A stretch of 64,000 bases of DNA from an uncultured Clostridium sp. (GTDB lineage Bacteria > Bacillota > Clostridia > TANB77 > CAG-508): contig CAKNJL010000004.1 of the NCBI GenBank assembly GCA_930982035.1, positions 408 through 64,407 on the forward strand, in the 5' to 3' direction. Below, one piece after another: positions 4,386-4,698 of the stretch (within the stretch, counting starts at the first letter, position 1; each line of letters opens with the position of its first letter). The notes beneath the pieces were generated by a model, which was given only the letters and a program-made list of their open reading frames with translations, had not been told where the DNA came from and did no database searches. The position numbers and the translations under genes were made by a program.

Positions 4386-4698
4386 CCAAAAGGGACAGAC
4401 CTCATTAAAGGTCAAGGATATGTAAAGGATGATGCTAGAGGGGAAAATATATAATATAAAATCATTCACAATTTTGTATAAGCTAAATTTTCAAAGAAAT
4501 TCTAAAAGGAAAAAATGTTTTCTTGCACTCAGACCCTCGCATTCTGCGAGTACCGTGCATATCCAACATTTCTTTCTTTAAGAATTTCTAATTCAAATTT
4601 AGATACGCAAAATCGTTCATTCCTTTATATTATATATTATCCCCTCTAGCATCATCCTTTACATATCCTTGACCTTTAATGAGGTCTGTCCCTTTTGG
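4386..4698. repeat. 313-bp palindromic element (MITE/ERIC-like) with 75-nt near-perfect terminal inverted arms
   Basis: Arms 4386-4460 and 4624-4698 are reverse complements with a single mismatch. The inner arms are diverged but alignable. The central hairpin ctcgca-ttc-tgcgag lies at ~4541. Confidence 0.85.

Follow-up and report, generated by a model that had tools for sequence, protein, structure and literature searches.

A palindrome beside metK in an uncultured gut Clostridium, probably a nested repeat of mobile DNA

Anatomy of the palindrome

The palindrome analyzed here lies between an upstream ORF and metK in the window, by which we mean the whole stretch of 64,000 nucleotides under analysis. 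Its source is a MAG of an uncultured Clostridium sp., here called G000 (2.16 Mb in 107 contigs, 26.7% GC, with the bin 88% complete). An earlier, sequence-only reading had placed a palindrome with near-perfect terminal arms of 75 nt at 4386-4698, immediately next to the metK promoter. The arms are as described: the outermost 75 nt on each side (4386-4460 and 4624-4698) differ by a single mismatch, GGGGAAAATA versus GGGGATAATA. An inverted-repeat search returned longer arms of 134 nt (4386-4519 and 4565-4698) that are 84% complementary and spaced 45 nt apart. The location is also as stated, with a promoter-like site at 4731-4759 just outside the palindrome. The extent needs revision; a palindrome does occupy 4386-4698, but the palindromic or repeat-derived stretch runs from approximately 4348 to approximately 4727, and the parts that reach outward are REP modules.

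Two smaller structures proposed in the same reading are present as well. A central hairpin, CTCGCA-TTC-TGCGAG at 4536-4550, sits on the symmetry axis, and a small hairpin, GACCT-CATTAA-AGGTC, occurs once per arm (4398-4413 and 4671-4686). Folded as RNA, the palindrome gives the long hairpin that had been predicted, at -172.7 kcal/mol compared to -55.5 +/- 4.5 kcal/mol for shuffled sequences (z = -26). From left to right, the features are as follows.

3659-4357: upstream ORF; its last two codons and TAG stop (4355-4357) lie inside the left REP module
4348-4398, plus strand: left outer REP module, flavor A2; hairpin GGAACG-TTAGGGACGGGCCAAAT-CGTTCC, then AAAATGAGACCAAAAGGGACAG
4399-4449, plus strand: left copy-specific arm, B type; includes GACCT-CATTAA-AGGTC and occurs only twice genome-wide, as the two arms here
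4450-4634, plus strand: conserved, oriented core of 185 bp, with two near-invariant blocks and the apex hairpin at 4536-4550
4473-4492: near-invariant block 1 of the core, TTTGTATAAGCTAAATTTTC
4595-4611: near-invariant block 2 of the core, AAATTTAGATACGCAAA
4635-4685, plus strand: right copy-specific arm, the reverse complement of 4399-4449 with one mismatch
4686-4727, minus strand: right outer REP module, flavor A1; GGGGACGTGTCAAATTGAACATTTTTTGTCCAAAAGGGACAG on the minus strand
4731-4759, plus strand: metK promoter-like site (TTGACA, 17 nt, TG-AATAAT), matching 11 of 12 consensus positions, with an extended -10
4798-5907: metK

After its hairpin, the tail of the left A2 module continues ...AAAAGGGACAG. 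REP modules contribute the final codons and stop of a gene (...GAA CGT TAG) at 4348-4357 in the window and also at approximately 300-330 of locus L254 (genome G010, contig C65). At G000:C7:38490-38872, both of two convergent genes terminate inside the two arms of one palindrome.

A conserved core between matched, copy-specific arms

The 185-bp core is present in 28 copies in G000, at 78 to 98% identity, and it has matches at more than 110 sites in MAGs of related uncultured gut Clostridia/Eubacteriales; according to their database records, these loci come from uncultured Clostridia or Eubacteriales of animal guts. We gathered 129 distinct core copies from related MAGs for analysis. The core has a direction, with approximately 90% identity among the 28 G000 copies in forward orientation and approximately 70% in reverse. 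The suggestion of a MITE/ERIC-like element with long TIRs, or of inverted repeats maintained by recombination, is correct as to kind, with 28 cores in the genome and relatives elsewhere, and this copy number refutes a single-copy duplication without consequence. A search of phage and plasmid collections for distant matches found none to the element, and an Rfam scan of window positions 3500-6000 returned no family at E <= 1.

Core identity between copies is approximately 90 to 93%, compared to 63 to 67% for the arms. Two blocks of the core are approximately 94% identical even across species-level subfamilies, and deletion derivatives of the element retain only these two blocks. The pattern of conserved outer arms and decayed inner arms seen by the sequence-only reading is true inside the metK-side copy but is reversed across the family: the arms are not conserved TIRs, as they are copy specific (67% identity between copies), and it is the inner 185 bp that is conserved (approximately 93%). 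At 17 to 20 pairs of the core, at least two Watson-Crick types occur, and the bottom strand of the core is the more stably folding one in 103 of 105 copies, which are related copies rather than independent events. The similarity of the core among copies would stem either from constraint or from conversion between copies.

We rejected a coding reading of the two ORFs in the core region (4429-4581 and 4515-4649), given the frame-breaking indels in other copies, the mirrored changes, and the 166-bp and approximately 96-bp derivatives that lack this region. At approximately 11 loci, the core apex hairpin is the exact insertion site of another palindromic element, approximately 175 bp long (AATTAAGTAATATATTAATTTC...GAAATTAATATATTACTTAATT) (L064 1501-1857, L071, L080, L101, L111, L112, L115, L117, L147, L161, and L167).

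Outside the core, the arms are 35 to 99 nt long and are near-perfect complements of each other within each copy (for example, 76/76 positions in C12, 52/52 in C27, 88/88 in C7, and 89/89 in C16); in most copies, the arm sequence is absent elsewhere in the genome. The 15 B-type copies, whose arms we regard as homologous because they have a recognizable skeleton in common, have a median core identity of 92.7%, a median arm identity of 67%, and a median within-copy arm complementarity of 100%. The B-type arms thus evolve approximately four times faster than the core, with nearly all changes mirrored in the partner arm. Mismatches between arms show no strand bias (96 G.T versus 105 A.C, p = 0.57). 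Given this lack of bias and the paired arm changes within species described below, the data support DNA-level copying of one arm onto the other, rather than selection at the RNA level, as what keeps the near-perfect arms matched. Such copying might proceed by hairpin or template-switch repair, for example.

Two other origins for the arms were considered. Because each arm has just two occurrences in the genome, insertion of the core into an older family of repeated palindromes is ruled out for most copies, and capture of flanking DNA at an earlier site of residence is unsupported, with no third copy of any arm. In copies flanked by the REP flavor called X (such as L041, L042, and L057, from G044 and G056), the core is separated from the REP module on either side by 13 to 20 nt; these stretches differ in each copy and are neither complementary nor direct repeats, unlike the matched arms of G000.

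We selected strain contigs from other samples by their identical flanking proteins. In the C27 copy, only two sites vary among nine strains over 303 nt, and the two pair with each other. Five strains have C:G at this pair, three have T:A, and one has the intermediate C.A. The gene beside this copy is at least 99.75% identical across strains. At C19, two to four linked changes set the copy apart from that of G000 in seven of the eight other strains; all of them fall within a 31-nt stretch of core sequence, and the rest of the 415 nt is identical. These changes include a compensated switch from G:C to A:T in the apex hairpin, for which one strain is intermediate. Three changes in the C15 copy are clustered within 20 nt. 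No paralogue in G000 is an exact donor of the core changes clustered in these two copies. The element provides a clean natural case of both palindrome arms changing together within a species.

The metK locus itself varies among strains. In two independent samples, the core has 4 differences in 185 positions, the outer approximately 33 nt of both arms are swapped symmetrically, and A1 replaces A2 on the left, between flanks that are 97.1% and 99.92% identical. One strain contig (L227) carries A1 on both sides, and in another variant the core has collapsed to a shorter, more perfect palindrome. Two contigs (L247 and L248) carry an extra element of 143 nt inside the A2 hairpin, at the 4369/4370 junction; similar sequence is found downstream of the RAYT-like gene on C25 and at approximately 6150 of C35. 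We set aside three contigs with mixed arms (L226, L244, and L249) as possible assembly chimeras formed through the common core. Among 8 to 20 strain contigs at each of four loci (C4, C27, C19, and C15), no empty site was found, and the related species offer no usable orthologous empty site, because metK has other neighbors there.

REP modules, RAYT-like genes, and an IS66-family partner

The outer modules of the palindrome belong to a larger repeat population. G000 has 16 inverted pairs of A modules, which enclose differing contents (44 to 295 nt), and approximately 25 more A modules that stand alone; A1, the right-hand flavor beside metK, belongs to this set and encloses varied inner content. 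The motif GGGGACG occurs 291 times in G000, compared to 9 occurrences expected from base composition. A relation between the motifs at the arm ends and GGGGACG boxes elsewhere in the window had been proposed from the sequence, and we can now place these boxes in REP hairpins that bracket RAYT-like genes.

Seven genes in G000 match the Pfam Y1_Tnp profile, with scores of 41.6 to 66.6 bits against a cutoff of 23; one is IS200-like and six are RAYT-like. The RAYT-like ORFs are approximately 240 to 260 aa long (about 255), except for one 456-aa fusion. Five of the six RAYT-like genes lie between inverted copies of a GGGGACG hairpin, each in its own flavor: the A2 hairpin found beside metK brackets the gene at G000:C25:21081-21848, and those at C32, C38, C10, and C53 each have a flavor of their own. 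Similar arrangements occur in related genomes, where A1 modules bracket a RAYT-like gene at G056:C23 and X modules bracket one at G046:C5, in a species in which X also wraps the core. For the C25 protein, the top NCBIfam family is REP_Tyr_transpos, at 64.5 bits and under the 80-bit cutoff, while IS200 scores 23 bits; the RAYT-like proteins had no sequence match in the PDB. We infer that the REP hairpin modules are cognate repeats of these RAYT-like (HUH Y1) transposases, with the action of RAYT upon the repeats deduced solely from their arrangement. The 456-aa ORF (G000:C67:2160-3530, minus strand) joins a RAYT-like Y1 domain to a C-terminal phosphoribosyltransferase-like motif (ILLIDDIYTTGST, ComF-like); it has no GGGGACG hairpins nearby and so may be a domesticated copy.

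Matched REP pairs surround 74 of the 129 core copies (X-type pairs in 57 and A-type pairs in 17), whereas approximately 15 copies have IS66-type termini and 32 have other or unique surroundings. An inverted REP pair around the core, as in most of these genomes, would make a REPIN-like unit that RAYT may be able to move. The metK-side copy has A2 on its left and A1 on its right, and because these flavors differ, it is not a true REP doublet. Short, extragenic, high-copy palindromic repeats with a conserved motif are what we found, and every core copy in G000 (28 of 28) is intergenic.

These features resemble the REPIN or REP-BIME systems associated with RAYT (PMC3116915, PMC3733652), which likewise consist of short, high-copy, extragenic hairpins with a conserved tag, located behind coding regions. 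For REPs and REPINs, genomes with several different single-copy RAYTs have been described, as have compensatory changes in hairpin spacers (PMC3116915; PMC3733652). Here, too, distinct single-copy Y1 genes are each bracketed by their own repeat flavor, inverted doublets form long hairpins, and a variable spacer stays paired by mirrored changes. The GGGGACG motif includes the CGTC tag of the REP superfamily of that name, for which Di Nocera et al. (2013) found no dedicated transposase (PMC3733652); RAYT Group 1 is known in Clostridia (PMC5581495). Our elements differ from REPIN-RAYT systems in that the hosts are low-GC, uncultured gut Clostridia, the "spacer" of 230 to 290 bp holds an oriented 185-bp core, the GGGGACG tag is in the hairpin loop or 5' of the hairpin, the metK-side copy lies between two different REP flavors, and the RAYT-like proteins, at approximately 255 aa, score under the curated RAYT cutoff. 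The findings would extend REP/RAYT-type systems with a CGTC-containing tag, previously without a known transposase, to uncultured Firmicutes.

In sister species, the core travels with a second partner. Two core subfamilies (the G010/G037 type and the G044 type) have uniform arms starting GTAAC/GTTAC..TTCAGA. The proposed search for target duplications gave a positive result in these relatives: 7 of 11 copies with such termini have flanking octamers identical at seven or more of eight positions (five perfectly), compared to 0.69 in shuffled pairings. In G044, the terminus of the MITE is GTTACAGTTCAGACTAA and that of the IS is GTTACTGTTCAGACTAG, and eight contig ends lie approximately 80 nt from a terminus GTTACTGTTCAGACTAGAA, a pattern characteristic of a multicopy IS that did not assemble. 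An assembled IS in G147 and G009 is 1,672 bp long, with 28-bp TIRs (GTTACTGTTCAGACTAGAAAAATAAAAA), a perfect 8-bp target duplication (CAATATTT), and one 496-aa ORF. This ORF, found on contig C33 in G147, is the transposase, matching DDE_Tnp_IS66 (PF03050) at 97.8 bits and transpos_IS66 (NF033517) at 164 bits. The layout of TIRs, 8-bp repeat, and single ORF is the same as that of ISDge4 from Deinococcus geothermalis, an active element of the ISBst12 group with the TIR GTAACTGCTCAGCA (PMC12898284). Only the first approximately 17 nt are common to the IS and the MITE, and their interiors are unrelated. Because of its IS-matching termini and 8-bp target duplications, the core element in the sister species is a true MITE of an IS66-family (ISBst12-group) IS.

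Comparison with known IS66-family (ISBst12-group) MITEs leads in the same direction. The sister-species termini (GTAAC/GTTAC..TTCAGA) resemble both the IS terminus GTTACTGTTCAGAC and the ISDge4 TIR (PMC12898284), the elements are non-coding, 230 to 270 bp long, and flanked by 8-bp duplications, and G044 holds a matching IS in the same genome. The metK-side copy departs from this pattern. Its arms retain ATTAAAGGTCAAG (in the G010 type, ATTCAGAGGTCAAG) but have lost the terminal GTAAC/TCAG motif, and no recognizable IS66-type terminus or target duplication was found there; its flanks are inverted, not direct, repeats. The skeleton of its left arm is homologous both to other B-type arms and to the part of the G010-type MITE that holds the IS66-type terminus. 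Target duplications are likewise absent from the other B-type copies, where the flanks extend as inverted repeats. The B2 arm type is the only one in G000 that keeps direct repeats (8/8 in C44, 7/8 in C15, and a 9-mer in C19).

Neither a gene for an IS66 transposase nor an IS66 end was found in G000, and the five core-bearing relatives likewise have no assembled IS66 transposase. MAG bins lose IS bodies even when IS ends are evident, as in G044, where the ends break eight contigs, and because the gene is missing from the G044 bin as well, its absence from G000 is uninformative. G000 does hold an approximately 70-bp mini-derivative of the 1,672-bp IS.

Other IS66-like sequences are present in G000. 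A second MITE family with IS66-like termini (GTTACAATTCACAG...) has at least 25 termini and interiors unrelated to the 185-bp core (examples are C1:19260-19504, C27:21788-22031, and C2:32981-33061). Approximately 17 contig ends (such as those of C9, C39, C43, C79, and C103) stop inside two related, unassembled ISs with the terminus TTAAGTTTCGGT..., and C20:21227-21481 is a 255-bp deletion derivative of an IS with this terminus. The subterminal GTTATCCACAGAAT of these ISs contains a perfect DnaA-box-like TTATCCACA; this subterminal sequence also occurs in the IS66-family IS of the sister species. We dropped a proposed link between the B-type arm terminus and the unassembled TTAAGTTTCGGT IS, as the similarity is too short.

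Position beside genes and interpretation

We consider it likely that the metK-side palindrome is a non-coding, nested repeat of mobile DNA, made up of a core, copy-specific arms, and outer REP hairpins. The 185-bp core with its own inverted arms of approximately 50 nt would have become nested between two REP hairpin modules, and the core itself, judging from its relatives in sister species, may be a present or past MITE that was moved in trans by a DDE transposase in the ancestry of this copy. The copy is probably immobile now, given its degenerate IS66-type termini, its lack of a target duplication, and its presence in every strain contig. Like most copies, it lies directly behind a stop codon, and there a long hairpin with T-runs may serve in place of a two-way terminator that separates the upstream operon from the metK promoter. 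What is new here is the IS66 partner with target duplications, the pairing of RAYT-like genes with REP flavors, and the mirrored changes within species. One conserved core is tied to two different transposition systems.

By description, Correia (NEMIS), ERIC, RUP, and BOX elements are also intergenic, hairpin-forming, non-coding, and 100 to 300 bp long; some are modular, and they are often cotranscribed with their neighbors. In those elements the termini are conserved and the interior varies, opposite to the arrangement found here. Correia elements duplicate TA.

Position is the basis of a different interpretation, in which the element has been co-opted by the host and is kept under selection as a two-way terminator or insulator that separates metK from the upstream ATPase/solenoid operon. 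The metK-side element lies right on the upstream stop codon, ends 3 nt before the -35 box of metK, and has an outward-facing stem-plus-T-run site at each end. Across G000, 24 of 28 copies adjoin the 3' end of a gene, and in tandem arrangements 17 of 18 copies are much closer to the stop codon than to the next start. The four copies examined are fixed across strains, and orthologous spots in relatives carry plain terminators; behind the orthologue of the C27 neighbor, for example, there is a plain terminator hairpin in four related species and an A-module doublet with other cargo in G010. Such a position is common to any long hairpin, survivorship of insertions at terminators predicts the same distribution, and the conserved, asymmetric core is left unexplained; on the sequence evidence, we regard co-option as possible but doubtful. 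On the simplest reading of the position, the genome tolerates insertions at sites where a hairpin does no harm or is of use, and this reading accounts for the nesting as well. The piling together of palindromes at terminator positions shows how compact, AT-rich genomes of gut Clostridia tolerate repeats.

Whatever its effect on termination, the element is not a metK-specific regulator and is uninformative about metK regulation specifically. It is absent upstream of metK in related species, which have short metK leaders and different upstream genes. At one related locus, L027 (G004:C2), a long, GC-richer leader with a riboswitch-like look lies approximately 200 nt upstream of metK; G000 and its closer relatives do not have a leader of this type.

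The core is more conserved than expected of a dead transposon, which leaves room for a strand-specific function. It is conceivable, though we think it unlikely, that the core is a selected strand-specific module (a structured RNA or ssDNA hairpin) that the RAYT/REP and IS66 systems acquired independently. If so, it could be a self-folding cis element that aids its own copying or a portable host terminator.

Also unlikely is a structured noncoding RNA gene or cis RNA element (stabilizer or terminator) under selection, with the arms extending its stem. This would fit the identity of approximately 90 to 93% between core paralogues compared to 63 to 67% for the arms, blocks that are approximately 94% identical across species-level subfamilies, the 17 to 20 covarying core pairs, the within-species switch from G:C to A:T in the apex hairpin, and the observation that REPs are often transcribed within 3' UTRs (PMC3733652). 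The greater stability of the bottom strand in 103 of 105 copies would also fit, but it counts related copies rather than independent events, and DNA-level arm copying would yield the same covariation. The scan at E <= 1 gave no Rfam match, promoter-like sites inside the element are weak (9 of 12 positions), and the arm mismatches show no strand bias. Derivatives that keep only the blocks, and elements nested in the apex, are as expected of mobile DNA.

An invertible switch, with the core flipped by recombination between the 75-nt arms and metK expression altered as a result, is very improbable, despite the long, near-perfect arms and the orientation of the core. The core had the same orientation in all of approximately 10 strain contigs at the metK locus, with no flipped core found, although rare flips may escape notice in assemblies. 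The metK promoter-like site is identical in all strain contigs and lies outside the element, which has no strong internal promoter, and approximately 28 copies are at unrelated loci. A one-off, inconsequential local inverted duplication, to which the restriction of the arm sequence to the metK locus might point, deserves virtually no credence, as it is refuted by the 28 core copies in this genome and the many related genomes that carry the core.

Repeats of the nested, mobile kind that we favor can donate stop codons to neighboring genes, and they are open to being misread as RNA genes or switches. In practice, they also break MAG assemblies and make chimeric contigs. The largest cluster of common contig ends in G000 (29 ends, such as C13_3 and C102_5) encodes an N-terminal segment resembling that of pilins (...GITLIALVITIVL...), an indication of a large gene family that breaks assemblies.
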